64,000 nt of DNA from the NCBI GenBank assembly GCA_963719515.1, contig CAVRCJ010000006.1, positions 384,001-448,000 of the forward strand, written 5' to 3'. Each line of letters starts with the position of its first letter. The stretch's first letter is position 1. The notes below the pieces were generated by a model. The model ran no database searches and was not told the DNA's origin. It was given only the letters and a program-made list of their open reading frames with translations. A program made the translations under genes and the position numbers. The stretch comes from an uncultured cyanobacterium (GTDB taxonomy: Bacteria; Cyanobacteriota; Cyanobacteriia; CAKZMO01). Positions 43,075 to 64,000 of this stretch are shown here, in pieces.

Positions 43075-43486
43075 TCAATCGATTTCGGCTTGCTGCTGAA
43101 TGTACTGCTTCAAAGCTGATATGGGAGCGCTGCCGCAGGAAATAAGGCAATACGACCTGCTCCAAAAAACCGGCTTACCCCGATAGACACGGTTGAGGTG
43201 TCCCGTCAAACTCTTTCCTGATTAAGCGGCTCGACACGGTTTTGAGATTGTTCACCAGCTTGGACGGCTGAACCTTGGGATTGACCGATATCAGCAAATG
43301 GATATGGTCCGGCTCACCATTGCACTCAATCAGCTCACATTCCCATTTGCCGAGGGTGGCGCGGAATATCTCGGCCAGCCGGTCTTGCATCGCAGCAGTA
43401 ATACATTTTCTGCGGTCCTCTGTGCAGACGACCAAATGAAACTGGATATTGTAAGCGCAGTGCCTAAGCTTGTTTAGGGTCTGCAT
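43075..43486 (-). pseudogene. tnpA: IS200-type Y1 transposase TnpA, frameshifted
   Basis: YNIQFHLV, DHIH (HUH), LKTVSSR. Frameshift near 43200-43208 puts FWSRSY...LKQYIQQQ (catalytic Tyr helix) in another frame ending at 43075. Confidence 0.88.
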
Positions 43487-44066
43487 CGGTGTGACGACTA
43501 AGCTACAATACATCAATGCTAACACTGACCCGTGAGTACAAGCTGAAGCCGACCAAACGACAGGCGATTGAGATGGAACACATCTTGTCGGTCTGCCGTA
43601 GCGTCTGGAATTATGCATTGCGAGAGCGCAAGGACTGGATTGCCTCGCGCAAAAGCTCAGTCAATACCTGCTCTTTGTGGGGCGAGTACATCGTGGCTGC
43701 TGATGCTCCGTTTCCTGGCTTTGCTGAGCAATGCAAATCGCTGACGCAAGCCAAGACGTCGAACGCAGCGCTCAAGTCGGTCAATGCCCAGGTACTTCAG
43801 CAGGTGCTCAAGACGCTAGACAAGGCGTTTCGAGACATGAAGGAGCGCGGCTTTGGGTTCCCCCGGTTCAAAAAGCGAATGCACTCCTTCGTGTTTCCGT
43901 AGCTTGGCAAGCACCTTCTGGGCAATGGGTCTGTGAAGCCCCTGCATTGGCGACGCGAGGATTCGCCAGTCCCGGCCCTATCCCGATGGCTTCAGGGTTA
44001 AGCAGGCGCGGGTTGTGAAACGTCCATCAGGGTTCTATCTGATGCTGACGTTTCAGGCTGATTTAG

Positions 44067-44458
44067 CTACTAGACAGGAAGCCCCGCGCTCTACCCGTCA
44101 GGGTGAGCGTCGGGATGAGAGTCGCGCTAGCCGAAGTGCGCCCGCAAAATGATGCACAGCGGATAGTGCGCTCAGCGCTGAGGCTAGCAGTTGGTATGAT
44201 AGAGATAGCAAGGTGATACACCCCGCAAAGAGTGTGACGGGCCCGTAGGCGAAAGCTGCAAGTCACCCGTTCCTCAGTTTGCAAATGTATCTGCGACACA
44301 TAGTGCGTATCCTCCCTCGCGGAGATGAAAATTCAAAACTCTGCCGTGGGGCATCAGGCGGAGTATAAACCTATCTCAGGATATGTCTCGGCAATAGCTG
44401 GGAGTCACTGAGGAAGCCCGCGCTGTACAGCTTGCTGTCAGCGTCGGGAGGATGTCAC
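44067..44458 (+). mobile_element. 392-bp non-autonomous IS200/IS605-type mini-element (PATE-like) nested in tnpB
   Basis: Both ends carry CCCGCGCT...AGCGTCGGG hairpins (44083-44114, 44417-44448). Guides AAGC and GAAG fit target TTAG and end TCAC. Removing it restores tnpB ...FQADLDIPQP... Confidence 0.88.
44338..44458 (+). ncRNA. putative omegaRNA-like scaffold in the mini-element
   Basis: Stems ACTCTGCC/GGCGGAGT and TCTCAG/CTGGGA plus the right-end hairpin, where TnpB omegaRNAs normally lie. Boundaries approximate. Confidence 0.45.
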
Positions 44459-45154
44459 ACATTCCTCAACCCCCTGTAGCAGGTCATATTGTTGGTGTTG
44501 ATGTTGGCCTGGAGTATTTTCTTTCCACCTCTGACGGCCTTCAGATTAAGCGCCCTCGATTCTTTGTGGATATGCAGCGCAAGCTGAAATTGCTGCAACG
44601 CAGATTGAAGCGAAAGAAGCGAGGGTCAGCAAACTGGATTAAGGCTCAGCAAAAGGTGGCGCGGCTGCACGAGTGCATCAGGAATACCCGCAAGGACTTC
44701 CACTTCAAAGTCGCACATCAGCTTTGCCATGGAGCCGATGTGATTGCAGTAGAAGACCTCAACCTAGTTGGACTGTCGCGGGGTATCCTCGGTAAGCACA
44801 TGCGCGATGCAGGCCACGGGCAGTTTCTCAATCAGATATTGCCGTGGATTGCTTGGAAGCGAGGCAAGGCGTATCTGAAGGTTGATGCTCGCGGCACTTC
44901 TCAGGAGTGCCCTGATTGTGGGGACAAAATAGTGAAGCAGCTATCTGACCGCTGGCATAGCTGCTCTTGTGGGGCGTCAATGCCTAGAGACGTTGCCAGC
45001 GGCCAGGTGATTCGACATAGGGCCGTCGGGCGGACGGTTCTTGAAAATGCCTGTGGAGACGGTCTAACGGGGGCAGTAGCTTAATGCTGTTGTCTAGCCA
45101 AGAGTAAAAGAAACAGGAATCTCCGACTGTACCCACAGGGTCAGGGGGAGTGCG

Positions 45155-46732
45155 TCAATCTTCCTGTTCACCTTTTTCCTGAAAGCCCTGCACGATACGG
45201 GAAAGCTCATTACGCTCATTGACCGCTATCCGGTTAGGCGAGCCGCTGATAATCCGCTCGTATTCTCGGAAAGACTTCTTAATCTGAGGTCCGTTCTCGT
45301 CAATCATGTACTCTCGGATGCCCTTGTCATGCCAAGAGCCGCGCATTTTGAAAACGTTGATGGCCCGGGACATTTCCCCTCGAATCTCGACGTACTGAAG
45401 CATCAATATGGTGTCAGTGATGGTCGAGATATGTGAGTCGGTGATTGAGTGAGACCCCATGAATTGGTCGGTGGTGTTCGTGAAGAACCCTGTAATCTCC
45501 TCTTGTTTAGCGAACCCTGTTACTCCAATCACAAACTGACGGAAGGTATTGTTGCTGACGCCGCGGGCTAGGGCGGAGAGCGAGTCGATAGCAATGCGGG
45601 ACGGCTTAAAGTTGGCAATTTCAGACTTGATAATCTGTAGGTGGTCTTCAAGCCCAGCAGACTCGGGATAAGCGCATAGAATGCGCAGCAGACCCCGCTG
45701 CTCCAACTCCTCAAAATCGATTCCCCAGGAATAGGCGTTACGGGAGAGCTGCGCCCGCGACTCTTCGTAAGCAAAAAGGATGGCACGGCTGTTGTTTTCG
45801 CAGGCGTTCTGCAGAAACTTGCTCACTAGCATCGTCTTGCCGGTGCCGGTAGCTCCGGTAGCCAGGATGATTGAATCTTTAAAGAAACCACCGCCGCACA
45901 TCTCGTCTAGCGTCTCAACGCCTGAGGACACGCGTACGTTTGACGAGCGCTGGGTGAGGCGCATCGCTCCGAGCGGAAAGATATTGATCCCCTGATTGGT
46001 AATCGTAAAGGGATACTCTCCCTTCATGTGGGTGGTGCCTCGCAGCTTGAGGATTTCGATTGTTCGTCTACGGCGTTCTCCCTCAAGGGCGTTGCGAACG
46101 ATAACAACGTTGTCAGAGACGAATTCTTCAACGCCGTATCGTGCTACGCTGCCATATTCTTCGGTTCGCTCTGCTGTCATCACGGTGGTAACGCCCACTC
46201 GCTTTAATCGCGATGCCAGTCGGAATAGCTCGCGTCGCACAATTGAGGTGGCGTCGTACTGCTGAAAAAGGGCGGTGACAGAGTCAACCGAGACGCGAGA
46301 CGCGCTGTACTTTCGAATGGCGTATTGAGTGCGCTCGATGATTCCTGACAGGTCAAAGTTACCGACGACTTCTTGACCTTCTGGATCGGGCGAGGCGTCT
46401 AAGATGAACAGCTTTCCGTCGTCAATGAGCTGTTGAAGATCCCAGCCGAAGCTATGGGCGTTCTCAATGATGTCGGAGGGGGACTCTTCAAAAGTAATAA
46501 AGAGTCCCGGCTCGTCGAAATGAATAATGCCGTTATATAAAAAATGAATAGCAAACAGCGTTTTTCCGGTACCCGAGGTGCCGCTGACCAGCGTCGTTCT
46601 GCCCGCCGGGATACCCCCATGACTGATATCGTCGAAGCCCTCAATCATGGTCCGGAGTTTTTGAACGCCCTCTTCCCCCCTCGACGTGTCAAAGGGGTCA
46701 GTTTCGCGAGCGTTGTAGGAGTTTGGCTGCAT
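45155..46732 (-). CDS. kaiC: circadian clock kinase/ATPase KaiC
   Basis: Two P-loops (GTSGTGKT, GATGTGKT) and the DSHISTIT phosphorylation site. Confidence 0.99.
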   Translation of the reverse strand: MQPNSYNARETDPFDTSRGEEGVQKLRTMIEGFDDISHGGIPAGRTTLVSGTSGTGKTLFAIHFLYNGIIHFDEPGLFITFEESPSDIIENAHSFGWDLQQLIDDGKLFILDASPDPEGQEVVGNFDLSGIIERTQYAIRKYSASRVSVDSVTALFQQYDATSIVRRELFRLASRLKRVGVTTVMTAERTEEYGSVARYGVEEFVSDNVVIVRNALEGERRRRTIEILKLRGTTHMKGEYPFTITNQGINIFPLGAMRLTQRSSNVRVSSGVETLDEMCGGGFFKDSIILATGATGTGKTMLVSKFLQNACENNSRAILFAYEESRAQLSRNAYSWGIDFEELEQRGLLRILCAYPESAGLEDHLQIIKSEIANFKPSRIAIDSLSALARGVSNNTFRQFVIGVTGFAKQEEITGFFTNTTDQFMGSHSITDSHISTITDTILMLQYVEIRGEMSRAINVFKMRGSWHDKGIREYMIDENGPQIKKSFREYERIISGSPNRIAVNERNELSRIVQGFQEKGEQED

Positions 46733-46832
46733 GGGCTATGCAATCTAAGTTAATACAGGGTCGTAACACTCTCAATCCTAGCCGGTTATGCGTCACTAGG
46801 GACAAGGCTACAGTACCGAAGAGCCGACGCTA

Positions 46833-47153
46833 CTAACTGTCGTCGCTCAGCTCACCATTGGACAGGGTATCGTAGAGCAAGTCTAGTCCAATCAGCACCT
46901 TCTCTCGATCAGACAAGTCCCCAATGATTTTACGAACGGGCGGCGGCAGAATTTTGGAGAGCGTCGGCGTTGCTAGGATCTTGTCCTCTTCAGCGAGCTG
47001 GGGATTCTTCATCACATCAATTACCTTAAGCGCGTAGACGCCATGAAACTCTTGCTCAAGGATGCTGTTGAGCGTTCTCAGGGCCCTCAGGGAGTTTGGA
47101 GTGTTGCCTGCAACGTATAGTTTCAAGACGTAGGTTTTTTGGGGAGGAGTCAT
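46833..47153 (-). CDS. kaiB: circadian clock protein KaiB
   Basis: [14 protein letters not shown]...KILATPTL. Confidence 0.99.
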
Positions 47154-47272
47154 AGGAGAGAGTCCGTACCTCTAGAGTGGACTGCTCAAAGCAGCATGCT
47201 AGAGACCGTAAATAAGGCCAAATAGGGCAAGGAAGTGGGCTTGTGACCAGGAAGGGAGCGATTTCCCGACGG

Positions 47273-48160
47273 CTAGGCCTGCCGAGGAATCGATCGCCTA
47301 TACATTTCGCATAGGTTAGAGAGAGTATCGATCAAGGTCAATCGGTAGTCTAGAAGAATTTCCTCGCTGCGGCCCTCGATTTTCAGCTGCTTGGAAAATG
47401 CATCCATAAGGTCCATGTGGATCTCAACGACTTGAACAATGGGCACGTCAGCAAAAAAGGCTGAGTTGACATAATTATCAATCTTTTGGTTGAGCAACGG
47501 ATCGTCTGTAAAGTAATTGAGAATAATTTCCTGGTAGCTTCGCTTCAGCTGAGCGAGCTGCCGCTGTTTTTCCTCTGAAGGTAGATAGCGCAGAAATCGC
47601 TCTGGATCTCGCTTATAGTAAACGCTCAAATACCCTAGCCTCTCTTTCAGCTTTTCGGCCAGTCGGTCTTGCTGACAGGCGAGCAGCGCATGCTCTTGCT
47701 TGTCGATATCATTGTGTGAAGGCTGCTCAGTTTCGCCTGATAAGGGGATTTTGAGAAACTGGTTGATCACGCGATCGATGTGGGACGGCAGCTGGTTGAG
47801 CTGCTGGAACTCCAGCCAATAGATCGCGGTGTAATATCCAAATTTATCTGGGCTGTCGGCCTGCTCGGCGATCGCCTCATCTTCGAGACGTCTGTCCCTA
47901 ATTAAAATTGTAGGCAACAAAATCGAGCGCGATCGCAGTTCGCCAAGCGCTGACGGAAGCTTGCCCTGAGCATCTAGAATTAGACAGTCAATACCATTGC
48001 GGCAGGCTTCAATCGCCTCAATGAAATCGCTGTGGGTCAGAAATATTTCGAGCTGATACGCGTCGCCGTCTAAACTTGACTTTAGTGAAGGCGCTACCGC
48101 ATCAGTCGCTAAGTAGGCATAGACAACTATCTTTGGCTTTGATTCCTGTTTGGAGGCCAT
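47273..48160 (-). CDS. kaiA: circadian clock protein KaiA
   Basis: Pseudo-receiver N-terminus; KLKERLGYLSVYYKR...LCEMYRRSIPR. Confidence 0.98.
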   Translation of the reverse strand: MASKQESKPKIVVYAYLATDAVAPSLKSSLDGDAYQLEIFLTHSDFIEAIEACRNGIDCLILDAQGKLPSALGELRSRSILLPTILIRDRRLEDEAIAEQADSPDKFGYYTAIYWLEFQQLNQLPSHIDRVINQFLKIPLSGETEQPSHNDIDKQEHALLACQQDRLAEKLKERLGYLSVYYKRDPERFLRYLPSEEKQRQLAQLKRSYQEIILNYFTDDPLLNQKIDNYVNSAFFADVPIVQVVEIHMDLMDAFSKQLKIEGRSEEILLDYRLTLIDTLSNLCEMYRRSIPRQA

Positions 48161-52438: not shown

Positions 52439-53185
52439 ATGACTGACCCCATCCCCACCGACATTCTTCAGGAATGCGATCGCCTCAAAACCCAGCTCGA
52501 CGCCCTCCGCCCCCTAGACCCCGCCCTCCTCAAAAACCTCCGAGAACTCTACACCGTCCGCCTCACGCACAACTCCACCGCCATCGAAGGCAACACCCTT
52601 ACTGAAACCGAAACTCAAATCGTCCTCGAAAAAGGCATCACCATCGGCGGCAAACCCCTTCAAGACCACCTAGAAGTGGTCAACCACGCCGAAGCCATCG
52701 ACTACATGCGCGACCTCGCCCAGACCAGCACCCCCATCACCCAATGGGAAGTTCGCCAAATGCATAGCTTGGTGTGCAAAGGAGATAAGCAGGCGGGAGC
52801 CTACCGCACCGTCAATGTCATGGCCGCAGGCACCAACTACCGGTATCCTAACGCCATCCAGGTGCCCGATCTGATGGCCGACTTCGGCACCTGGCTCGCT
52901 CACCCCCACCCCCTACATCCAATTGAAATTGCCACCGAACTCCATGCCCGTTTGGTCACCATTCACCCCTTCACCGACGGCAACGGCAGAGTCGCTCGCC
53001 TCCTAATGAACCTACACCTGCTGCGAACCGGCTACCCAATTGCCGTTGTCCAAGCCACTGACAGAGCCGCTTATATTGATGCTGTCGTCGCCTGGCAAGC
53101 CGGTCACACCAAACTCTTACTCGGTTTAGTGGCCGACTGCGTAAAAGCCTCAGCGATCGAAATCCTCGGTCTAGTGAATGGCTAA
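52439..53185 (+). CDS. Fic-domain AMP-transferase, class II (autoinhibited)
   Basis: Canonical HPFTDGNGRVAR; N-terminal inhibitory motif STAIEGN. Confidence 0.92.
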   Translation: MTDPIPTDILQECDRLKTQLDALRPLDPALLKNLRELYTVRLTHNSTAIEGNTLTETETQIVLEKGITIGGKPLQDHLEVVNHAEAIDYMRDLAQTSTPITQWEVRQMHSLVCKGDKQAGAYRTVNVMAAGTNYRYPNAIQVPDLMADFGTWLAHPHPLHPIEIATELHARLVTIHPFTDGNGRVARLLMNLHLLRTGYPIAVVQATDRAAYIDAVVAWQAGHTKLLLGLVADCVKASAIEILGLVNG

Positions 53186-53310
53186 CGAATAGCGCTTAAA
53201 CGAGGCTTAATCGTCTGAAAATGCCCCGACGATATCCCAACAGTGACTGGCGGGACAGCCTTCTCAGCGGGCACACTGGTCAAGTACAGTGTCACCCAAG
53301 GTTCCTGAAC

Positions 53311-53652
53311 ATGAGATTTCTAGTCCAGCTGATTGGGTTCGCCCTCATGCTCCTCGGCGTCTACTTTCTCGGGCGCAACATCGTCTTCACCACTAACGTC
53401 TATCCGTACTTTTGGCGTGGCCTCTCCGCCGATCTGTCGGTACTTTGCCTCGTTCTAGGCGTCGTCTGGCTGCTGATCATGCCCATCGGCGCGAGACACT
53501 TCGGCTGGGTCTTCCTGATCGCCGGTATCGTCTTTGTCTTCGGCAGCAGTCGCGCCATTCTCAACCCCACCAGCCTGTGGCAGTTCTTTGTTGCCTTTGC
53601 CGCCATGGCGTCAGGCTACAAAATGCTAGCGACCGGGCGATCGCCATTCTAG
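53311..53652 (+). CDS. small 4-TM membrane protein
   Basis: Four hydrophobic segments. Start placed at MRFLVQ. Confidence 0.7.
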   Translation: MRFLVQLIGFALMLLGVYFLGRNIVFTTNVYPYFWRGLSADLSVLCLVLGVVWLLIMPIGARHFGWVFLIAGIVFVFGSSRAILNPTSLWQFFVAFAAMASGYKMLATGRSPF

Positions 53653-53805: not shown

Positions 53806-56800
53806 CTAGGCGATCGCCGATTCTCGGTCGCCTGTGGAATGCTCGTCTAAGGCCAGTTCGTCCTGCGCCACAGCCTGGTGCTCCCGCCAATAATCAAACT
53901 TCGTAGTATCGATATGCTCCACAATGCCGCCTAGCTGCCGCACCTGCTGCACCATGTCGTCTGTGCCGCCGGGGCCGTCGCCCCCCTGCCCGTCCCACAG
54001 CACAAGCAGCCGCATGCAGTCAATCCGGTGAGTGAGGGCGTTGTACAGCGTCCAGCGGTTGTTGCGGCTGTAGATATCCTCCCCATCTGGAACCTTGCCC
54101 AGCCGCTCGGGCTGTAGGTGAATCGTCGCGTCCGGGTGGTTGGCGATCGCGTAGAAGCGCTCCACCCAGCGATCGCCCGCAAAATTCACAGAGTCTTGAA
54201 TAAAGCCTGGAGGGTCAAAGGGGAGATAGATATCGGCCACCATGCCGCGAGCCAGGCAGGACTCTAAAAAGAGAATGTCGCCGCCGCAGGCGATGCCGCC
54301 GCAGATGGCCCTGCAGCCCGACTGAGCGCCCAAACGCTCTAGCACCGCCTCAATGCGCCGCTTGGCTTCCGGCTCCATGGTGGCCGGAAAGCGAGGCTTA
54401 GGCCGACTGGGGCTATCGATCATGTGGCCGGAGAACATAAATACGGGGGCGGCGGTGTCTCCGTCGCCCTCCTCAATCGTGGTGCTGTTGAACCGACGCA
54501 GCTCTTCGTCTAGTACGGTGCGGCCCGCCTCCACATACTCGGGGCGAAATTCCAGCAGGTGCAGCAGATACAGCTGATCCAAAATCGATTGGAGGGCAAA
54601 CTTTTGGTTCCACAGCGCCGTTAGGGCCTTTTTGTAGGCGATCGCCACCTGTATGGGCTCAGACGCGACGCACACCGCGAGGTCTCCCAGGGACGAGGCC
54701 GCCCAAAAGTCCTTGGGGTGGTTTTGCATCTGGCTGCGCAGGCAGAACTCCACCGCCCCCTTGAGGTCCATCATCTGCTGTCGGTAGGCCGCTTCGTCGG
54801 GGTCACCCGTCGGCCCTACCCGCTCCGCTAAGCTGTCCAGCACCGCCGTCAGCATAAAGGCGTTGATGCCAGGGTAATAAGAGTTTTGGTTGAGCCGGAA
54901 GGCGCGCAGGTAGTTTTCAATCGCCTTTTGCAAAAAGTGGGAGGCGTCGTAGGCGGCTTTGATGCGCAGCTCGGCCTCTTCTAAATGGAACCACTTGTCT
55001 TTCCATAGGTCTTTATAGATCCGAGCCAGATAGGCCATGGCCTGGGTGTGATTGGGCTCGTCCTCCAGCAGCGCCTCCAGCTTCACGATGGCCTCGTTGG
55101 GCTGATGCAGGCGGCTGAGGTGGTAGGCCTCCTCGCAGCGAAACTCGACGTTTTCTGGGTTAATGTCTAGCCCTTGTCGGTACTGCTTCAGGGCCAAAGC
55201 AGAGTTCCCCGTATCCCGCAGCACTTTTCCGGCGTAGGCCAGCACGTCTTCTTTCACCAATGGATTTTTCACTTCTTCGGTGAGCAGCAGCACATCGCCG
55301 ATGCGCTTTTGCCGTTGGGCGACCTGCAGCCGCTGCTGCAGACTGGTGTACTCTTCCCAGTAGCCGGTGGCTAGAGGGGTGCGCAGGGTCTTGCGGTCAG
55401 GCTCTATCAAGCCATCCAGCAGGTTGAAGATGGGGCTGTGAATGGCGTTGCGGTCCGACTCCCAGGTGGCAAGCAGGGTGCTGATAATGGCCTGCTTATC
55501 TTTTTTGAGGTGGGCGGGATCAGGACAGCCGCTGTCATCGCAGTGGTAGGGGATGGTGCGCACGTTGAAGATGTCGAAGGGCATGTAGGCCCGTCCGGAT
55601 TGGATGTGGACGATGCCCCGCTTGCGCATGGCGTGGCGGATGCCCAGCTCGTAGTAAACGTTGGCATTGTCGATGCTTAGGTCCGCAATCACCAGGTCCG
55701 CCAGCAGCAGCTCTTGGAACATATCGGTGAGGATGTCGCCGCTGGCGGATTCTTCGTCGGCGCGAAAGGGTTCGAATCGCGCCTCTAGCAGAGCGGGTTT
55801 GATCAAATCGCTGTAGATGCGGTCGAAGTCAATCCAGCTGCCATCGGCTGCCTGCTTACGGCCAAAGGGCATCACGACAAAAGCGTGGGGAGCTCCCCGA
55901 GGCACGGTGGGCAGCTCTGTAGGCACGGGGGCGGGGACAGGGGCGGGCAGAGGCGCAGGCTCTTCTACGACCACCGCTGCAGGCACGTTGGGCGGCACCG
56001 CATCGACGCTCTTGTCGTCGTCGGCCTGAGGTGGCGCGTCCTCGGTATCGGTGAAGCCGACGTCCACCGTGATCGGCGTGATCTCAGGTTCTGTCCCTTG
56101 AGGGACCTGGTCAAGTTCAACGGGGGTGGCGGTGGCGGCCTGCAGCAGCGTCTGGTCCGTATCGTCTAGCTCGGGAATGCCTGAGGGCTGGCCCGTCAGC
56201 AGCGCCTCAGTCGCCACAACCAGCTGAAAAAATTGGGAGCCCGTGCGCTCGTCTGGCATCAGCCCCAGCCAGCGATTGCGAATTAGCATTAGCTCTAGCC
56301 GCCGCTGCGTCGCCGCCTCCAGGGTCGCGGTTAGGCCAGAGATGTCAATCCACAGCCCCACCGCCAGGCTCGCTGCCAGAGGCAAGGCGGCCCACAGCCT
56401 GAAGGGACTGGCCAGCACCAGCAGTAAAATGCTGCAGCCCCCCAAGAGCACCACTACCACCCACAGCACCTGCTGCTGGCGCTGCAGCCCAGCCACCTGC
56501 CGCGCCAGCTGAGAAATTTGCGGGTCAAGGCGTTCTGTCAAGTAGCCTTCTGCCAGCAGGTCGGGGTAGCTCTCGCGGGACGCCGCCTTTGTCATTAGCA
56601 GAACTCCGGTGGGAGCCACCTGCTGCTGCACTTGCTCTACCTGGCAAGTTAGCCAATGATGTCGCTGCGGGATCTTTTGCAGCACGGTACGGTAGAGATA
56701 AATAGCCCGCCCTAGGGTCTCGGTAGCGCTCTGCAGGGCTGCCCAGGACCGCCGCTCTCGCATTTGGCTGGCGCTGACAAACAGCATTACGGCGGCGATC

Positions 56801-57048
56801 GCCAGCCCAATCGCGCCCACGCTGAGACCCAACGCCGAAGATGCCTTAGGGGAAGACAGCAGCGCCAAGAAAATTGCCCCTAACAGCAGCGTCATCCAAG
56901 CCGCTTGGACGAGCAGATATTTTCGAAAGGAGTCGCGACCGCTCTTTTGAAGCTGGATATAGAGCTGCCAAGCATCGGCCAACAGTGAGGAATCGGAGGG
57001 GCGATGGCGTTGCGTCATAGGTGTTGAAGGTGAGAAGGGTAGCTGCAT
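53806..57048 (-). CDS. tandem SLATT (4 TM) + DRHyd/NDT-like + DUF4071/TPR-S + SLOG-like protein
   Basis: Two 2-TM modules (W..LQSATE.L..AIYLY; YLTERLDPQI); AFVVMPFG...DLVIADLSIDNANVYYELGIRHA; TPRs with YYPGINA and DFWAASSLGD; FSGHMID...ACGGDILF...LWDG.GGDGPGGT.DMV. Confidence 0.85.
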   Translation of the reverse strand: MQLPFSPSTPMTQRHRPSDSSLLADAWQLYIQLQKSGRDSFRKYLLVQAAWMTLLLGAIFLALLSSPKASSALGLSVGAIGLAIAAVMLFVSASQMRERRSWAALQSATETLGRAIYLYRTVLQKIPQRHHWLTCQVEQVQQQVAPTGVLLMTKAASRESYPDLLAEGYLTERLDPQISQLARQVAGLQRQQQVLWVVVVLLGGCSILLLVLASPFRLWAALPLAASLAVGLWIDISGLTATLEAATQRRLELMLIRNRWLGLMPDERTGSQFFQLVVATEALLTGQPSGIPELDDTDQTLLQAATATPVELDQVPQGTEPEITPITVDVGFTDTEDAPPQADDDKSVDAVPPNVPAAVVVEEPAPLPAPVPAPVPTELPTVPRGAPHAFVVMPFGRKQAADGSWIDFDRIYSDLIKPALLEARFEPFRADEESASGDILTDMFQELLLADLVIADLSIDNANVYYELGIRHAMRKRGIVHIQSGRAYMPFDIFNVRTIPYHCDDSGCPDPAHLKKDKQAIISTLLATWESDRNAIHSPIFNLLDGLIEPDRKTLRTPLATGYWEEYTSLQQRLQVAQRQKRIGDVLLLTEEVKNPLVKEDVLAYAGKVLRDTGNSALALKQYRQGLDINPENVEFRCEEAYHLSRLHQPNEAIVKLEALLEDEPNHTQAMAYLARIYKDLWKDKWFHLEEAELRIKAAYDASHFLQKAIENYLRAFRLNQNSYYPGINAFMLTAVLDSLAERVGPTGDPDEAAYRQQMMDLKGAVEFCLRSQMQNHPKDFWAASSLGDLAVCVASEPIQVAIAYKKALTALWNQKFALQSILDQLYLLHLLEFRPEYVEAGRTVLDEELRRFNSTTIEEGDGDTAAPVFMFSGHMIDSPSRPKPRFPATMEPEAKRRIEAVLERLGAQSGCRAICGGIACGGDILFLESCLARGMVADIYLPFDPPGFIQDSVNFAGDRWVERFYAIANHPDATIHLQPERLGKVPDGEDIYSRNNRWTLYNALTHRIDCMRLLVLWDGQGGDGPGGTDDMVQQVRQLGGIVEHIDTTKFDYWREHQAVAQDELALDEHSTGDRESAIA

Positions 57049-57224
57049 AGGGCTGTGGGAGAGCGGTAGCTCCTATTTAGAGTGCTACTGTTTAGCCCGA
57101 CCACAGTGACGTTACTGAACTTCTAAGGCGGAGCCTCCCGCAGTTGGGATTCGCCGATAAATTACCTGCACCCTTTTCGCTTGTTTGTTAGGACACTGAC
57201 TTTAGCAGCATCCCCTTAGACCGC

Positions 57225-57407
57225 TTAATGCCCCGCCATCTTTTGAATGACCGACGTTTGCTGCTCAATCACTGAGGTCTGCTGTTGAGATAGCGCAATC
57301 AGAGACGCAATTGATTCCTGCTGCACCAGCTGCAGCGATCGCAGCTCGCTGATCTCTTGCCTTAGGGACTGAATTTGAGCCTGTACGTCGTCTTGAGAAA
57401 ATTCCAT
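57225..57407 (-). CDS. small coiled-coil protein (60 aa)
   Basis: Heptad Q/L/I pattern; lies between the two SLATT genes on the same strand. Confidence 0.6.
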   Translation of the reverse strand: MEFSQDDVQAQIQSLRQEISELRSLQLVQQESIASLIALSQQQTSVIEQQTSVIQKMAGH

Positions 57408-57458
57408 AGTTGTCCCAAACCTGTTGGTTATTTTACATAAAGCCAGCGGCGACGCGTG

Positions 57459-58880
57459 CTAAGCCACGATGCGCGCCTTGGCCCGGTCGATGTACTTAGA
57501 GAATACATCCCAGCCATGGTAGCCGCCATTGACTAGCTTACGTACGCGCCGCCAGTCTCCGGCCCGGGCCGCTGTCGCGACGCCCCGGTCTTTGAAGTAG
57601 CAGGCCAGCACTTTAGCCGAAACTTCAGGATCCATCGCCAGATCGGGGTTGTTTTCTAAGTCAACGCCGAGCTTTTTACCGTAGGTGCGGTAGTTTGCCC
57701 GGCCCGTCAGCTGAATATAGCCCCGCCCGTGGTAGCGAACCCCATCGCCGGGGTGAATATTCCCCAGATCTTTGCGGCCTTCGTAGCGTTTCCAGTATTT
57801 CTCCCCCCCCCATTCATGAACGGGTTTCATTCCCGAGGTTTCGACGCGGATAGTGGCTAGCATGCCGATGAGCACGTGTTTGTCGAGGATGTCGTAGTCC
57901 TGCAGCGCCGCGAGAATGCCGGGAAGATACTTGCGGCAGTCTTCTAGCGGGCATTCCAGCACTTGCGACACCTCTTCCGCTGTTGCCAGCTGGGGCACTG
58001 AAGCTACGGCCCCATTTCCGCTACGGATTCTCTGGCCGGCTCCATTGCCATTGGCTACTGGCTTTGTCTGGTTCACAAGCGCCCGAAGCGCGTCGAGATC
58101 AACCTCCTCTTCCCAGGGCATCGCCGCAGCCCCCAGTGGCGGCAGCCCCTTCAACGGGTCTAGGCCATTGGGGGCTGCGGTCCCGTTTGCTACCGGCTCG
58201 CTGGCGTCGCCATCAGAAGAATGGGCCAGTCTTTGGCGTTCCTCTAACTGTCGGCGCTCTTCTAGCTGCTGCGCTCGCTCGAGCTGGACGTTAACGTTTC
58301 GCAGGGCGGCCTCGGCATTGAGCTGGGCCTCTTTAGCTGCGAGTTTATCTTCGTCCTGCTTTTCGTCTAAGCGAGCGAGGAATCCTTGGACATCCTGCTG
58401 GATGTATTGCTCGACGCGATTGGCAAAAGCGGTGTAGGCCTCGCTGTGGCTTTCAAACTGGTGATAGGGACCGGAGAGCTGGAAAAACTGCCACCCTTCA
58501 ATCTTCATCCCCTCCGCCGTGTTGCGGTAGTCACGGTATTTGTCGCCGTGGCCGAAGAACTCCTCCACCGCCGCCGAAACGGCAACGATCTGACTGAGCC
58601 CCAAAGCCGTCCATCCGACAGCGTTTTGAAAGCGCTGGTTTTCTTCGCCGGGACTGCGGAAGCTGATTAGCGCCGGCACTAAAACGCCGCCGACAATGGT
58701 GATCATTCGTAGGGTATGGTGGCGGTTGCGCTCTTTAGTGGCCCGGCCCTCTAGCCACATCAGCTGATCCAGCCAGCGATTTTTGAGAAACTCTTTGCGC
58801 AACTCGGAGATATCTAGACGATCGACGATACCGCCCAGGGTGTTCTTGAGATAGTTTCGGTAGTCATTCTTCTTGCCCAT
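57459..58880 (-). CDS. DUF4231/SLATT 2-TM domain fused to a GH19 lysozyme-like domain
   Basis: RWLDQLMWLE, two TMs, YRDYRNTAE.MK.E; coiled coil; ATIRVETS, YEGRKDLGN..PGDG.RYHGRGYIQLTGRANY, VNGG. Confidence 0.88.
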   Translation of the reverse strand: MGKKNDYRNYLKNTLGGIVDRLDISELRKEFLKNRWLDQLMWLEGRATKERNRHHTLRMITIVGGVLVPALISFRSPGEENQRFQNAVGWTALGLSQIVAVSAAVEEFFGHGDKYRDYRNTAEGMKIEGWQFFQLSGPYHQFESHSEAYTAFANRVEQYIQQDVQGFLARLDEKQDEDKLAAKEAQLNAEAALRNVNVQLERAQQLEERRQLEERQRLAHSSDGDASEPVANGTAAPNGLDPLKGLPPLGAAAMPWEEEVDLDALRALVNQTKPVANGNGAGQRIRSGNGAVASVPQLATAEEVSQVLECPLEDCRKYLPGILAALQDYDILDKHVLIGMLATIRVETSGMKPVHEWGGEKYWKRYEGRKDLGNIHPGDGVRYHGRGYIQLTGRANYRTYGKKLGVDLENNPDLAMDPEVSAKVLACYFKDRGVATAARAGDWRRVRKLVNGGYHGWDVFSKYIDRAKARIVA

Positions 58881-59319
58881 ATGCCTTTAATCCCAAGTGC
58901 TTATCGTTAAACTAGCGCAATTGTGAAGGGCGATCGCGCTCCAGCGCGTTTGCGTAGAACATCCGAGCTGTAGATGGTCCGACGGTTTTCGCCGAACTTC
59001 GCAAATACTGCAGGAAAGTCACAAAAATTCACGTCTTCAAAATCTTAAAAAGTGAAACCTGCTTTAGAGAATCAATACCTAAAAATACGCTGCTCCACTA
59101 AAAATCTCAAGCGGCTGCAGATATTTCCATGAACTTACGTTTCGATGCTTTAGGGGTATTTACCAAAACTTTATTTCGCTCAGGCTATAGTGCAAATATC
59201 TTGCTTTGCCTTGAGGCCGCCTTCCTCGAGGCTAGAGCCAGGATTATTGCCCAGAACGGTGTAATAAGCCGTGCTAATGCGGGCGATTGTGCAACTACCG
59301 CTTAGGCTCCCCAATCGTC

Positions 59320-60513
59320 ATGAATCTTCACCTTAACGTCCTCCAGCCTCAGTACGAGCGAGCGTTTCTCAACTGCGCTATTCGGTCCGACAGTCAGTCG
59401 CAGGTCGAGGCGATCGCCAATCAGATGGTTGGGCTGCGATCGCATTACGAAGCCGTAGAAGCAGAGACGGGAGTGCCCTGGTGGTTTGCCGGGATTTTGC
59501 ACTACCGGGAGTGGAATTTTCGGGAGCCTGAGCTGTTTGAGCGTAAAGCAGCAGAGGTTTTGATTGCCAAAAACTATCATCAGGCCCGTACGCGCACCTT
59601 AGGAGCCTACCTGTGGGGCTTTGACCTTTGGAACGGGTTTCGAGACGGCTCGGGTGAAGACTCCTCCTGGGTGTGGGCGGGCACCAACATTCTTGAAGAG
59701 GACACCCAAAAAATTGGGGTTGCCGCCATCCTGGTGTATCTGCAGAAGAGGAATATCATCGACATGCCTAAGCCCCAAAAGGGGGCGCGGCTGATAGTGC
59801 TTGCAGATACCACCTTTAAGGTCCGGCCCGAGCAGTCCTACCGCCTGAAGTCAGACGAGAAGATGGTCGTCAAGGCGGGGACTCAGCTCGAGGTGCTAGA
59901 AGACGATCCAGCGGAGGGCAACCACACCAAAATTGTGCTCCCCGATGGGGTACTGATGGGGCAGGATAGCCGCAGTGACTGGTATGTGTTCAGAGGGCAT
60001 GTGTCCATGGAGGGCACTGATCCAAAAAATCAGCCCAAGGACGAGCCCGAGGAGCCTGTCGCCTCGGTGGCTTCTGAAGACAAAGGAAACCCCATTACGG
60101 TGCCTAAGCTGGGCACCGTGTATCTCGGCAACCCCATCTTAGAAGGGGGGCATTTTAGCTGGGCTGAGGCCACTAAAAACGGGGCCCGCATTCCCGTAGA
60201 CGGGGGGGTTGTGGACGGCATCCTTAAAATTGCTGAGGTGATGGAAGAGGTGCGGGAGCATCTGGGCGATCGCTCCATTCGGGTTAACTCCTGGTACCGC
60301 GACCCGGTAACCAACCGCCGCGTGGGGGGAGCCAGCAAATCGCGCCACCTGAGCGGCGATGCGGTGGACTTTGTGGTGTCAGGCATCTCTCCGCCTCAGG
60401 TGAATCGTCAGCTCGAGTCCTGGTGGAACAGCCAGGGCGGTCTGGCCAGCGCCAGCAGCTTTACCCACCTCGACGCTCGCGGCTATCGCGCCCGCTGGTC
60501 ATACGGATTTTAG
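59320..60513 (+). CDS. peptidoglycan hydrolase: lysozyme-like N-terminus, SH3-like middle, peptidase M15A C-terminus
   Basis: YEAVEAETGVPWWFAGILHYRE; DTTFK...EK..VKAG...WYVFRGHV; NSWYR...N.RVGGA..SRHLSGDAVD...FTHLD (Zn ligands H, D, H). Start placed at MNLHLN. Confidence 0.85.
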   Translation: MNLHLNVLQPQYERAFLNCAIRSDSQSQVEAIANQMVGLRSHYEAVEAETGVPWWFAGILHYREWNFREPELFERKAAEVLIAKNYHQARTRTLGAYLWGFDLWNGFRDGSGEDSSWVWAGTNILEEDTQKIGVAAILVYLQKRNIIDMPKPQKGARLIVLADTTFKVRPEQSYRLKSDEKMVVKAGTQLEVLEDDPAEGNHTKIVLPDGVLMGQDSRSDWYVFRGHVSMEGTDPKNQPKDEPEEPVASVASEDKGNPITVPKLGTVYLGNPILEGGHFSWAEATKNGARIPVDGGVVDGILKIAEVMEEVREHLGDRSIRVNSWYRDPVTNRRVGGASKSRHLSGDAVDFVVSGISPPQVNRQLESWWNSQGGLASASSFTHLDARGYRARWSYGF

Positions 60514-60528: not shown

Positions 60529-63500
60529 ATGAATAGCTTCCAAGATGCGTTTATCTCCTACGGACGCAAGGACAGCAAGGCGTTTGTCGCTCGCCTAAAT
60601 CAGCGGCTGTTGGCGGCGGGGTTAGAGATTTGGTTTGATTTTGACGACATTCCCCTGGGTGTGGACTTTCAAAATCAAATCGATGACGGCATTGAAAAAT
60701 CCCACAACTTTTTGTTTGTCATCTCTCCTCACGCCGTCAACTCTCCCTACTGCCGCAAGGAAATTGAGCTAGCGCTTCGCCACCGTAAGCGGGTTATCCC
60801 GCTACTGCACGTGGAAGAAGTAGACCGGGCAACCTGGGCAGCGCGATCGCCAGACGGTACCAATGAAGATTGGGACACCTATTGCGCTCAGGGACTGCAG
60901 TCTAGCTTTGTCAACATGCACTCCGACATCGCTAAGATCAACTGGGTCTATTTTCGCGAGGGGCAAGACGACTTTGAGGCTGCGTTTGCAGGGCTGTTGG
61001 ATATCATCGGCCGCCAGCAGGATTACGTGCATCAGCATACCTATCTGCTCAAGGATGCTCTCACCTGGGAGCGGCAGCAGCGGCAGCCTACCTACCTGCT
61101 GGGCAAAGACGCCGGGCGTGCCCACCAGTGGCTGACGAAGACGTTTGACGAGCAGCCCCCCTGCTTCGCTACTGATCTGCAGGCGGAGTTCATTACCGAA
61201 AGCCTAAAGCGGGTCAACGGGGGGATGACCCAGGTGTTTTTGTCCTACAGCGAGGAGAACCGGCTGCAGCGGGAAGTAATTCACCGTATTCTCCAGCGTC
61301 AGGGCTTCACGGTTTGGGTCAACACCACCGATATTCAGAGCGGTACGGATTTTGAGCAGGCGATTCGAGAAGGCGTAGAGCGGGCTGACACCGTCGTTTA
61401 TTTGCTCTCCCCCAATGCTTTGGCCTCCCAATACTGTCAGCAGGAGCTTGGCTTTGCCCAAACCTACAACAAGCGGATTATCCCACTGCTGATTCACCCT
61501 GTGGATGGGGTGGAGGTGCCCGATGAGCTGCGGGTCATTCAGTTTATCGACTTTCAAATGATTTCTGGGACTGATGAGGCAGAAGGCAGGGTCGAGGACG
61601 AGGCGGCGCAGGGGGCCATCGCCAAGCTGATTCAGGTGCTGCGGCAAGACGAAGACTATTATGACTGCCACAAGCGCACCCTAGTCAAGGCGTTGCACTG
61701 GGAGCGCAACCGACGCCGCAAGAAGCACCTGCTGCGGGGGAGCGCGTTTGCCGAGGCGGAAACCTGGCTGACGGCCAGTCGGCACCAGACGCTCCCGCCC
61801 ACTCGTCTGCAGGAAGCGTTTATCCAGGCTAGCCAGGACATCAACCGCTACTTTGACGCCTTTATCTCCTATGGACGCGCCGATAGTCTTCAGTTTGCGG
61901 TTCAAGTGCAAGAGCAGCTGAGCCAGCAGGGGCTAAGCGTCTGGCTCGATAAAAGCGACATTCCGGTGGGGGTCGACTATCAGGCTCAGATCAACGACGG
62001 CATCAGCAAGTCCCACAATTTCATTTTCATCATCTCCCCCCATGCGGTCCACTCCCCCTACTGCCTCAAGGAAATTGAGTTTGCCCTGAAGTTCAACAAG
62101 CGCATCGTGCCCCTGATGCACGTTGAAACCATTAGCTACGAGACCTGGCGGCAGCGCAACCCTGAGGGCACTTCGGCCCAGTGGAAAGATTACCAAGCGG
62201 CGGGGCGGCATACCGCACAGGGAAGCGTCCACTCCGAAATCAGCAAAATCAACTGGCTCTTTTTCCGTGAGGGGGTAGACGAGCCCGAAGCCGCGATCGC
62301 CAGCCTCATCGAGCTGCTGCGGCAGCATGAGCCGGTGGTTCATCTGCACACTGAGCTATTGCTCAAGGCGTTAGCCTGGGATACTCACCAGCGGCAGGCT
62401 CAGTATCTGCTCACCGGAGACGATCGGCGGGAGGCGGAAGCCTGGCTGACGGCAGACTTTGCGGAGGAGCAGCCTCCCTACCGACCCACCGACCTGCAGG
62501 CGGCGTTCATCACTGAAAGCATTAAAAGCGTTGACGGGACGACGCAGGTGTTTTTGTGCGCGGCGGACGAGTATGGGAATGAGGAGCCTTCAGCCTCAGA
62601 GGCACCGGCGGCGGACACTCCTATACTCCAGTCAGCTCAGATTCGGCGAGCCCTGCAGCGCTCGGGCATTCCCGTCTGGAATCCCCAAACAGATGTGCAG
62701 GCCGGGGAGAATTTACAGCGGGCGATCGCTCGCGGGGTTGAGGAGACCGACAGCGTTGTGTTTGTGATATCGCCTCAAGCGCTGGTAGAAACGGTGTGTC
62801 TTGAGATTTTAAACCAGGCATTTCAGCTCAACAAGCGCATCATTCCGGTGCAGCTGCAGGCCTTGGATAATCTGAAGCTGCCCTCGGTGCTCAAGTCGCT
62901 GCGGCCCATCGGGCTAGAGCGCGATGGCGGCGGGCTGACGGAACTGAGCGTCCAGCAGCTCGTGGGAGCTCTGCGTCAAGATGCGGTGTACTACCGCACC
63001 CACAAGCTGCTGCTGCGCAAAGCCCTCAAGTGGGAGCGGCAAAAATATAACCCCAGTATCTTACTGCGGGGCAAAGCGCTGCGGCGCTATGTCACCTGGC
63101 TCGACGTGGCGCAGCGCCGTGAGCATTCTCCCATTCCCATTCAGCAGCGCTTTGTCCGCGAAAGCCTGGACCAGCCCCCTAACCAGACCGTGGACGTGTT
63201 TATTGCCTCAGCTCCAGAGGACATCGAGTTTGCCCGCAGACTGAACCAAACCCTCCAGGTTCAAAGTAAGACCACTTGGTTTGAGCAAGAGCACCAGGCC
63301 ACCGAGGTCGACGCCCAAGGCGATGTTCGGCAGGCGATAGAAAACGCCGAAAACGTGGTGGTAGTGGTGTCTCCTAACTCGGTGGGCTCTGCCGCTGGCC
63401 TCAAAGAGCTAGAGCATGCAGAAGCCCTCAACAAGCGCGTTATTCCAGTGCTCTATCAAGAGGTGCTGATTTCGAAGCTGCCCCCCGTCTTAGAGAAGCG

Positions 63501-64000
63501 CTCGGCCATCGACTTCCGCGCCAACAGCGGCGACTTTTTGACCAACTTTGGCGAGCTCTACCGGGCCATTGAGAGCGAGCCCCAGCATATGTATCAGCAC
63601 ACGCGGCTGCTAGTGAAGGCGAAGGAGTGGCACGACGCAGGGCGAGACGACAGCTACCTGCTGCTGGGACGCGATCGCGATGAGGCGGTGGACTGGCTGG
63701 CGGCGGCTGACGCTAAGACCCCCTCGCCTACAGATCTGCACCGAGGCTACGTTAAGGCGAGTCAGCAGCTGCCGTTTCGCCGTATCAGGCGGCGCTTTGC
63801 GGTGCTCACCAGTCTGGCGGCGACCGTCTTGGTGGGCGGGCTGAGGTTGGTGGGCGGCCTGCAGGCGGCGGAGCTGCAGGCGTTCGATCACCTGCTGACG
63901 CTGCGGCCCAGTGAGCCCCAGGACGATCGCTTTTTGACGGTGACGGTGGATCAGTCGAGTGGCTCCTGGCTGCGGGAGCGCTTGATTGACGGCGACTACG
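60529..64000 (+). CDS. five-TIR / TM / CHASE2 protein, 3'-truncated by the window (>1157 aa, absent from the track)
   Basis: Hand translation open from ATG 60529 to the window end. TIR starts: DAFISY 60544, QVFLSY 61231, DAFISY 61855, QVFLCA 62545, DVFIAS 63193. TM about 63796-63855, then LQAAELQAFDHLLTLRP.EPQDDRFLTVTVD (CHASE2 start). Confidence 0.9.
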   Translation, partial: MNSFQDAFISYGRKDSKAFVARLNQRLLAAGLEIWFDFDDIPLGVDFQNQIDDGIEKSHNFLFVISPHAVNSPYCRKEIELALRHRKRVIPLLHVEEVDRATWAARSPDGTNEDWDTYCAQGLQSSFVNMHSDIAKINWVYFREGQDDFEAAFAGLLDIIGRQQDYVHQHTYLLKDALTWERQQRQPTYLLGKDAGRAHQWLTKTFDEQPPCFATDLQAEFITESLKRVNGGMTQVFLSYSEENRLQREVIHRILQRQGFTVWVNTTDIQSGTDFEQAIREGVERADTVVYLLSPNALASQYCQQELGFAQTYNKRIIPLLIHPVDGVEVPDELRVIQFIDFQMISGTDEAEGRVEDEAAQGAIAKLIQVLRQDEDYYDCHKRTLVKALHWERNRRRKKHLLRGSAFAEAETWLTASRHQTLPPTRLQEAFIQASQDINRYFDAFISYGRADSLQFAVQVQEQLSQQGLSVWLDKSDIPVGVDYQAQINDGISKSHNFIFIISPHAVHSPYCLKEIEFALKFNKRIVPLMHVETISYETWRQRNPEGTSAQWKDYQAAGRHTAQGSVHSEISKINWLFFREGVDEPEAAIASLIELLRQHEPVVHLHTELLLKALAWDTHQRQAQYLLTGDDRREAEAWLTADFAEEQPPYRPTDLQAAFITESIKSVDGTTQVFLCAADEYGNEEPSASEAPAADTPILQSAQIRRALQRSGIPVWNPQTDVQAGENLQRAIARGVEETDSVVFVISPQALVETVCLEILNQAFQLNKRIIPVQLQALDNLKLPSVLKSLRPIGLERDGGGLTELSVQQLVGALRQDAVYYRTHKLLLRKALKWERQKYNPSILLRGKALRRYVTWLDVAQRREHSPIPIQQRFVRESLDQPPNQTVDVFIASAPEDIEFARRLNQTLQVQSKTTWFEQEHQATEVDAQGDVRQAIENAENVVVVVSPNSVGSAAGLKELEHAEALNKRVIPVLYQEVLISKLPPVLEKRSAIDFRANSGDFLTNFGELYRAIESEPQHMYQHTRLLVKAKEWHDAGRDDSYLLLGRDRDEAVDWLAAADAKTPSPTDLHRGYVKASQQLPFRRIRRRFAVLTSLAATVLVGGLRLVGGLQAAELQAFDHLLTLRPSEPQDDRFLTVTVDQSSGSWLRERLIDGDY

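Follow-up and report, generated by a model that had tools for sequence, protein, structure and literature searches.

A SLATT membrane domain tethered to an endolysin-type GH19 enzyme: a candidate lysis effector of filamentous cyanobacteria encoded near TIR and SLOG genes

What might be the function of a single protein that joins a membrane domain of the SLATT type to a cell-wall hydrolase and has no signal peptide? The question is raised by a gene, P0001, from a 64,000-nucleotide stretch of an uncultured cyanobacterium genome (GenBank assembly GCA_963719515.1, contig CAVRCJ010000006.1, positions 384,001 to 448,000; the whole stretch is referred to below as the window). The encoded protein consists of an N-terminal SLATT/DUF4231 domain, a long spacer, and a C-terminal GH19 domain (Table 1). 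An earlier note made from the letters of the window, here called the original prediction, had suggested a possible holin–endolysin within one chain, with a hairpin that keeps the enzyme in the cytoplasm until the membrane is breached. We lean, with modest confidence, towards a more specific version of this proposal, namely, that P0001 does the killing in a conflict or cell-death system encoded on cyanobacterial chromosomes, as a suicide effector gated by a TIR/SLOG-type nucleotide signal.

The protein is a member both of the SLATT/DUF4231 family and of the GH19 endolysin branch. Its start codon agrees with the MAKKNDY... starts of the aligned homologues. Residues 38–146 match the Pfam family DUF4231 (PF14015, 106 bits where 24.7 are required, E 1.6e-30), and residues 31–170 match the NCBIfam model SLATT_1 (NF033634, 98.6 bits where 41 are required, E 2.6e-28), the Pfam models SLATT_3 (PF18184, 21.8 against 26.3) and SLATT_1 (PF18181, 14.7 against 26.3) staying below threshold. 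Part of the N-terminal domain also matches phrog_7395, a family with function unknown (E 6.8e-14), and no holin family of Pfam, NCBIfam or PHROGs is matched by the protein. According to the hydropathy scan (Kyte–Doolittle scale, 19-residue window, threshold >1.2), there are just two hydrophobic segments, no window beyond residue 130 exceeding 0.96, and there is no signal-like segment at the N-terminus. The second segment closes with the conserved motif AVEEFF, in which E106 is present in 71 of 71 family members and E107 in 70.

The AlphaFold2 model, built with these 71 sequences (mean predicted local distance difference test value, pLDDT, of 85), contains helices at residues 26–73, 79–109, 111–133, and 145–221, and hence the predicted SLATT hairpin, that is, two helices with predicted membrane insertion, flanked by further helices. 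Comparison of the modelled SLATT domain with known structures by VIA and Foldseek yielded generic helical-bundle matches alone (BAR domains, IpaB; Z about 8), which were left uninterpreted, and the prediction of a four-copy complex of residues 1–222, with a score of 0.32 against the mark of 0.42, neither supports nor opposes self-assembly. The hairpin is followed by the stalk helix, with sequence conservation of merely 41% in residues 171–222, then by the disordered tether, and then by a compact domain at residues 301–472 with pLDDT >90. In the 71 homologues the inter-domain spacer comprises 118–207 residues (median 166); it is always long, and its sequence drifts (27–41% identity). The DUF4231-like domain with two transmembrane (TM) helices, the flexible linker, and the missing signal peptide were all recognized in the original prediction and are borne out by these data; of the coiled coil also proposed there, the single long helix is retained in the model, and oligomeric coiling is not seen.

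The C-terminal domain is a GH19 domain of the kind found in phage endolysins, as had been suggested. The Pfam GH19 match is partial (residues 379–424, 32.1 bits against 25.5), and residues 299–471 match PHROG 181, annotated as endolysin, with E 8.9e-44. The model of the domain superimposes well on GH19 endolysins of known structure: PaGH19Lys (9EOI) with Z 23.1 and a root-mean-square deviation (rmsd) of 1.8 A over 174 residues, PWe2 (9MS7) with Z 22.9 (Foldseek E 7.3e-10, TM-score 0.88), and KTN6 gp46 (8P8E) with Z 21.4; with SPN1S (4OK7) included, the matches span Z 21–23 and rmsd 1.8–2.5 A over about 175 residues. The motif set, which had looked intact by eye, is complete: the RVET motif contains E347, GRGYIQLTG contains Q390 and T392, and none of E347, E356, Y366, Q390, T392, and N451 varies among the 71 family members.

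The active site of PaGH19Lys is formed by H50, E51, E60, Y103, Q127, T129, I187, N188, and R197, and this enzyme was reported to cut the bond that joins N-acetylmuramic acid to N-acetylglucosamine (MurNAc–GlcNAc) in peptidoglycan and to be inactive on chitin and chitosan (PMC12329726). In the sequence alignment, Y366, Q390, T392, and N451 of P0001 correspond to Y103, Q127, T129, and N188 of PaGH19Lys, respectively, and in the structural superposition on 9EOI, the pair E347-x8-E356 corresponds to E51/E60, the glutamates of PWe2 being aligned as well; the two proteins thus have these active-site residues in common. The residue preceding E347 is Val, where PaGH19Lys has His50. Judging by this nearest characterised relative, the GH19 domain of P0001 looks active and would be a muramidase of the wall-cutting type. 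We also observed a CxxxxC pair that opens the domain at residues 310–315 (57935–57953, minus strand), with C310 in 65 and C315 in 58 of 71 members of the main GH19 type; it is conceivable that the pair works as a redox switch between cytoplasm and periplasm.

The fusion is recurrent. A clustered protein collection yielded 605 relatives, and the best 120 were taken for comparison. Among these 120 there are many full-length relatives with 57–75% identity from independent cyanobacterial assemblies, including multi-megabase contigs, which excludes the assembly artefact that the original prediction had allowed for. Existing database labels for them are “DUF4231 domain-containing protein,” “phage-related lysozyme,” and “predicted chitinase.” We compared the 121 proteins (the query and the 120 relatives) by BLASTP with three C-terminal references: 78 of them have the same GH19 type as P0001, six a second GH19 type, and 27, from Nostocales, a GH24 phage lysozyme, while ten, of 260–309 amino acids, have no enzyme. 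According to Pfam, more distant members include P0128 and P0131, in which DUF4231 is followed by Peptidase_C39_2 and GH19, P0224 with C39_2 alone, P0145 with GH24, and P0263, where an LSDAT_prok SLOG domain is fused to the N-terminus of DUF4231. Hence the domain-architecture search proposed at the outset finds four wall-hydrolase modules on this SLATT subfamily (GH19, GH24, a C39-like peptidase, and C39 with GH19) as well as members with nothing, and every one of the swapped modules is an endolysin module.

Across these swaps, the N-terminal domain is better conserved than the rest of the protein, with a mean identity of 67% to 70 homologues, and its invariant residues include R35, W36, D38, Q39, W42, E106, R119, E123, K126, and W130. 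In a quick maximum-likelihood tree of this domain (120 of 121 proteins, one being dropped because of a short alignment; limited support), the C-terminal label changes seven times, compared to a mean of 39.6 for shuffled labels, and the carriers of GH24 are nested among those of GH19. One membrane domain has been joined repeatedly to different endolysin modules, which points to wall degradation as the selected output.

The most informative result of the analysis is the gene neighbourhood. Among species-representative genomes, 158 stretches encode a relative of P0001, and 79 loci were kept for neighbourhood counts, which were obtained by tblastn with the window neighbours and by independent clustering of all open reading frames (ORFs) of at least 100 amino acids, followed by Pfam annotation. 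Since many loci end at contig ends, the fractions are lower bounds. A LSDAT_prok SLOG protein of about 250 amino acids (Pfam E 1e-50 to 1e-70) is encoded in 51 of the 79 loci, where it usually adjoins the fusion gene on the same strand; the family of a divergently transcribed 408-residue M15 protein is present in 53–54 loci and a protein with five TIR domains and CHASE2 in 45. Less frequent are the family of P0002, which combines SLATT, TIR-like and TPR-S domains (16–18 loci), a TPR protein (16), an FHA-like protein (13), a CHAT protein (10), and a DUF928 protein (9). The order and orientation of the genes differ among cyanobacterial orders, and the gene set is retained. The association with SLOG, SMODS, or TIR signalling genes that characterizes SLATT proteins is therefore present here, as SLOG genes in 51 and multi-TIR genes in 45 of the 79 loci and as the SLOG–DUF4231 fusion in P0263. 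The original prediction had named the gene at 53806–57048, that is, P0002, as the partner; it is a real neighbour, albeit in a minority of loci, the commonest partners being the SLOG, M15, and five-TIR CHASE2 proteins.

By their labels, 76 of the 79 loci come from cyanobacteria; two more are from “Candidatus Sericytochromatia” bins, and the last is from an “uncultured bacterium.” Where a genus is given, it is almost always either pleurocapsalean or a filamentous one (Leptolyngbya relatives, Coleofasciculus, Nostoc, Anabaena, Calothrix, Scytonema, Moorena, Phormidium, Microseira), and Synechococcus, Prochlorococcus, Synechocystis, and Microcystis do not occur among these loci. The source genome has one copy of the fusion, and the nearest fusion relative, with 77% identity, is from an Elainellaceae bin. 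With a threshold of E<=1e-30, the N-terminal domain occurs in 30 of 401 genomes sampled across the phylum (21 of 156 genera), a patchy distribution as expected for an accessory system. The fusion gene is chromosomal and cyanobacterial, neither phage-borne nor part of a prophage. In a tblastn search of 50,697 phage records, 1287 match, all with the GH19 part alone, and none of these 1287 covers 80% or more of P0001; likewise, the best 80 loci of IMG/VR match within residues of about 250–470. The flanks in other genomes are housekeeping genes, hence the assignment as non-prophage; these outer flanks are lineage-specific ordinary genes such as those for PdxA, CarB, GMP synthase, CbiD, CrcB, and an RRM protein.

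Both termini of P0001 are probably cytoplasmic, as favoured by the distribution of charges: four Lys/Arg and two His residues precede the first TM helix, two Lys/Arg residues lie in the 14-residue loop, and four follow the second helix. Related SLATT proteins agree with this: the domains that they carry at the corresponding positions, TIR-like and TPR after the hairpin in P0002 and SLOG on the N-terminal side in P0263, are of kinds that function in the cytoplasm. In such a topology the muramidase would be harmless until the membrane is opened. The data above show the architecture, the intact active site, the lack of a signal peptide, the recurrence with alternative wall hydrolases, and the conserved neighbourhood; from these we infer the topology, the formation of a pore, the crossing of the enzyme, the kind of signal, and the death of the cell as follows. 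At rest, the cytoplasmic membrane would hold the SLATT hairpin, its two ends facing the cell interior, and the muramidase would hang in the cytoplasm, away from its substrate, on the 77-residue helix and a tether some 70 residues long. A nucleotide signal is the presumed trigger; the five-TIR CHASE2 protein, the SLATT–TIR–TPR-S protein, and, in most relatives, the LSDAT-type SLOG protein would make or read it. Upon this trigger, SLATT domains would assemble into a membrane lesion, through which the tethered muramidase and the soluble M15/SH3b protein could then reach the peptidoglycan, so that both glycan and peptide bonds would be cut and the cell would lyse. The geometry seems compatible with this, the 77-residue helix and the 68-residue flexible tether probably being long enough to span the membrane and to reach the wall uncleaved. 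In its net effect, this would be a single-chain holin–endolysin placed under an immune-type signal. A second signal-less endolysin-like neighbour and the swapped hydrolases are what the logic of a holin plus an endolysin predicts, and they add weight to it.

In order to place this proposal among known systems, we compared P0001 with four of them. SLATT proteins are predicted membrane-breaching effectors of nucleotide-signalling defence (CBASS, type VII Thoeris with ThsH, DRT10), and P0001 resembles them in its matches above the family cut-offs, in the two-helix hairpin, and in the association with SLOG and TIR genes; what sets it apart is the wall hydrolase at the end of a long tether. Type VII Thoeris uses a TIR protein to make cyclic ADP-ribose (cADPR), and it has been proposed that this molecule causes the SLATT effector ThsH to oligomerise (bioRxiv 10.64898/2025.12.03.692087), while sensing and action of the SLATT effector of DRT10 have been called an open question. 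As in Thoeris, a TIR gene is found by the SLATT effector gene, the five-TIR_2 protein starting 1.6 kb away in a divergent operon; unlike it, a compact two-gene system with a single TIR, the TIR partner of P0001 is a membrane protein of 1503 amino acids with five TIR domains and CHASE2, and there are extra genes. This comparison was made by description, and the 2023 release of PADLOC predates type VII. For multicellular bacteria, lysozyme and papain-like wall peptidases have been predicted to be the effectors of other conflict systems, and SLATT has been described as a pore-forming effector, in an account that describes no protein joining the two (Kaur et al., 2020). In the literature searched we found no description of a fusion of SLATT/DUF4231 with a wall hydrolase, although the founding SLATT paper (Burroughs et al., 2015) may mention such proteins.

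Phage holin–endolysin cassettes share with P0001 a part that forms, or in P0001 would form, a membrane lesion and a signal-less endolysin-type muramidase that needs to cross the membrane, and a second hydrolase with a peptide-cutting domain adjoins P0001 as well; in contrast to the cassettes, P0001 is one chain without any holin family, chromosomal, and linked to TIR and SLOG genes. GH19 endolysins are free, soluble proteins of 180–223 amino acids, whereas the GH19 domain of P0001 starts with the CxxxxC pair and is welded to a membrane domain. Signal-anchor-release (SAR) endolysins are also membrane-tethered wall hydrolases that act only once the membrane has changed, and in this respect can be likened to P0001. 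They have one N-terminal helix directly before a catalytic domain that is already periplasmic, whereas in P0001 a pair of helices is followed by some 190 spacer residues and by an enzyme predicted to be cytoplasmic. Taken by analogy, P0001 would work like a holin–endolysin pair while standing outside that class. Hence the one-chain holin–endolysin of the original prediction holds for architecture and logic and not for family or origin, since SLATT is not a holin family and the fusion is not phage-borne; and the cytoplasmic position of the enzyme, favoured by the charge distribution and the missing signal peptide, is held with reservation, the charge bias being modest.

A number of observations weigh against a suicide effector with this mode of action. 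The second hydrophobic helix is moderately hydrophobic, in addition to the modest charge bias. Membrane breaching by SLATT is itself mostly inferred in the literature on SLATT effectors, and the passage of a folded domain of about 20 kDa through a SLATT lesion is one of the uncertain points of the scheme, along with the topology, the trigger, and the choice between death and local remodelling as the outcome. The identity of 67% in the N-terminal domain is unusually high for a defence gene. Phylum-wide, matches to this domain are mostly short forms without the enzyme, which implies that the enzyme is dispensable for whatever the N-terminal domain does. No model of PADLOC (2023) fits P0001. In the window, the TIR–CHASE2 gene and P0002 are adjacent to the fusion, but no stand-alone SLOG gene is present. 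Finally, the cluster is set among housekeeping genes and in no recognisable defence island, which would also fit a developmental or housekeeping role.

Two other roles can be imagined. The same machinery may respond to a developmental trigger and not serve against phages; filamentous cyanobacteria would then use it to lyse their own cells, whether to sacrifice them, to break the filament, or to set motile filaments free. The nearly exclusive occurrence in filamentous or pleurocapsalean hosts among the 79 loci (habit being taken from organism names alone), the high conservation of the N-terminal domain, the extracellular CHASE2 sensor on the TIR protein, and the housekeeping chromosomal context would all agree with that; we nevertheless consider it improbable, as the distribution is patchy even within families (e.g., 11 of 45 and 3 of 20 genomes), an unexpected pattern if the gene belonged to core development, and as TIR and SLOG are best known from immunity. 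Alternatively, the SLATT–muramidase and the M15 protein could open the membrane and wall locally and without killing, for the export of large neighbours (the FHA-like, CHAT, and DUF928 proteins) or for remodelling. Secretion that depends on holins and peptidoglycan hydrolases provides an analogy. These three proteins recur near the cluster, a TPR protein and a giant FHA-like protein follow the TIR–CHASE2 gene in the source genome, and the embedding among housekeeping genes is compatible with such a function. On the other hand, all three are missing from most of the 79 loci, no cargo without a signal peptide was identified, and the tightest partners, SLOG, TIR, and TPR-S, are signalling domains typical of conflict systems; we give this explanation about the same low credence as the developmental one.

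If the hairpin had the opposite orientation, or if the second TM helix acted as a signal anchor, the GH19 domain would always be periplasmic and P0001 an ordinary membrane-anchored autolysin. The modest charge bias leaves room for this, and a wall enzyme anchored in the membrane could likewise make use of a long tether. However, the 56-residue N-terminal tail with its 13 Lys/Arg residues is poorly suited to translocation, SLATT relatives carry cytoplasmic domains at the corresponding places (TIR-like and TPR in P0002, N-terminal SLOG in P0263), an unregulated periplasmic muramidase of the endolysin type would be dangerous, and the paired M15 protein lacks any export signal; we regard this orientation as very improbable. 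Hardly credible is a functionless remnant, be it of a decaying prophage lysis cassette or an assembly chimera. The GH19 domain is indeed closest to phage endolysins, and the match of the N-terminal domain to phrog_7395 might be read in the same way, but the full-length homologues in independent assemblies, the catalytic and N-terminal residues invariant in 71 of 71 sequences, the synteny kept across orders, and the restriction of phage and IMG/VR matches to the GH19 part all speak against it. Thus, among the readings considered, we retain the signal-gated suicide effector.

The results point to a death module of filamentous cyanobacteria that is conserved and acts by destroying the wall; the M15/SH3b protein and a 60-residue ORF downstream of the fusion gene are further putative parts of it, and the cluster links TIR/SLOG signalling to cell-wall destruction in multicellular cyanobacteria. 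This bears on the disposal of infected cells of a filament and possibly on sacrificial cell death in development. As a tentative extension, which we hold to be possible rather than probable, filamentous cyanobacteria may host a single-chain holin–endolysin gated by TIR/SLOG signalling and a CHASE2 sensor and aided by a second endolysin and a small helical regulator, by which single infected or damaged cells are lysed out of the filament. If so, SLATT lesions would be large enough for a folded enzyme, and a multicellular bacterium would have reassembled the logic of phage lysis, using immune parts, into an organ of programmed cell death. The killing mode of SLATT is still open in the literature, and a tethered wall-cutter provides a built-in natural reporter, since the lesion must pass protein if the enzyme is to reach the wall; lysis dependent on E347 and E356 would give a clean assay both for SLATT activation and for the triggering signal.

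Table 1. Coordinates of the fusion gene, its domains, and the neighbouring genes of the cluster in the window
Feature	Position	Strand	Description and evidence
SLATT(DUF4231)–linker–GH19 fusion gene P0001	57459..58880	(-)	473 aa, open frame, ATG start
SLATT/DUF4231 domain, residues 1–170	58371..58880	(-)	Pfam and NCBIfam matches
First hydrophobic (predicted TM) helix, residues 56–74	58659..58715	(-)	Kyte–Doolittle up to 1.84; inside model helix 26–73
Second hydrophobic helix, residues 87–109	58554..58622	(-)	Kyte–Doolittle up to 1.6; inside model helix 79–109
Stalk, residues 145–221	58218..58448	(-)	Single continuous predicted helix of 77 residues, possible coiled coil; AlphaFold2
Disordered tether, residues 223–290	58011..58214	(-)	pLDDT <50
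GH19 endolysin-type muramidase domain (predicted), residues 296–473	57462..57995	(-)	PHROG, fold match, partial Pfam match
Q-rich helical ORF directly downstream of the fusion gene	57225..57407	(-)	60 aa; tblastn
P0002	53806..57048	(-)	1080 aa; SLATT_1 169–287, TIR-like about 390–507, TPR-S 618–733, C-terminal SLOG-like candidate
Divergent signal-less endolysin-like gene	59287..60513, probable start 59320	(+)	408 aa; Pfam and model
5xTIR–CHASE2 membrane protein	60529..64000, running past the window to a would-be end at 65040 (L082:5041)	(+)	1503 aa; Pfam TIR_2 x5, CHASE2

In the M15 protein encoded divergently from the fusion, Peptidase_M15_3 is matched at residues 307–396 (Pfam, E 2.3e-19), and no hydrophobic segment is found by the hydropathy scan. 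According to VIA on the model, its M15 part resembles the zinc D-Ala-D-Ala peptidase 1lbu (Z 9.7), and a further part resembles wall-binding domains of the SH3b type (Z 6.7, plus many endolysin binding domains with Z 5–6), while the best matches of the helical N-terminal domain, to lytic transglycosylases and enzymes resembling lysozyme such as MltF (Z 6.9), MltE (6.6), and SltB1 (6.1), are middling and serve as a lead only; Foldseek gave no match to the model at E<=0.001. By its model, the protein thus appears to be constructed like a modular endolysin that lacks an export signal. In Nostocales orthologues (e.g., L023:9985-11328) a conserved unassigned domain takes the place of M15. A profile search of PDB with this Nostocales-type C-terminal domain of the M15N family yielded no match, and the Atlas look-alikes of the family are unnamed, phage-rich clusters (0.96).

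The TIR–CHASE2 protein consists of five TIR_2 domains, then CHASE2, then C-terminal hydrophobic stretches, and its gene is followed by genes for a TPR protein and for an FHA-like repeat protein of 1432 amino acids (L082 5132-10829). The TIR-like region of P0002 is indicated by a match to phrog_3634 (E 3e-26) and a weak TIR match in PADLOC. Its C-terminal region has Gly-rich motifs and is placed by Atlas near SLOG clusters of the YpsA type (0.84), a lead only; if it is indeed a SLOG domain, a sensor, a possible signal maker, and a membrane effector would be combined in a single chain. The sole LSDAT_prok gene of the source genome is located on another contig beside lpxB (C11:160846-161487; L164 7781-8494, minus strand), where it closes a BamA–LpxC–FabZ–LpxA–LpxB row, distant from the SLATT cluster.

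The 60-residue ORF is kept directly after the fusion gene in 19 of the 79 loci (tblastn, E 3e-10 to 2e-26) and matches no Pfam family; by pairing with the stalk helix, it could regulate or inhibit the fusion protein. A Rfam scan of positions 56900–59400 at E<=0.1 gave no match, promoter and terminator sites were no more numerous than in shuffled sequence, and a look-up of RNA holders lists none for the fusion gene.

Just past P0002, at 52439–53652 on the plus strand, a Fic-domain protein (E 3.3e-20) and a hydrophobic protein of 143 amino acids are encoded; these and other genes beyond P0002 were rejected as partners, as they are present in none of the 79 loci. Further away in the window, ORFs resembling transposases of the IS200/IS605 type were recognized by eye at 43175–45084, with a TnpB-like frame that appears split (43516–43902 and 44452–45084), and KaiC-like and KaiA-like ORFs, likewise judged by eye, lie at 45155–48160.

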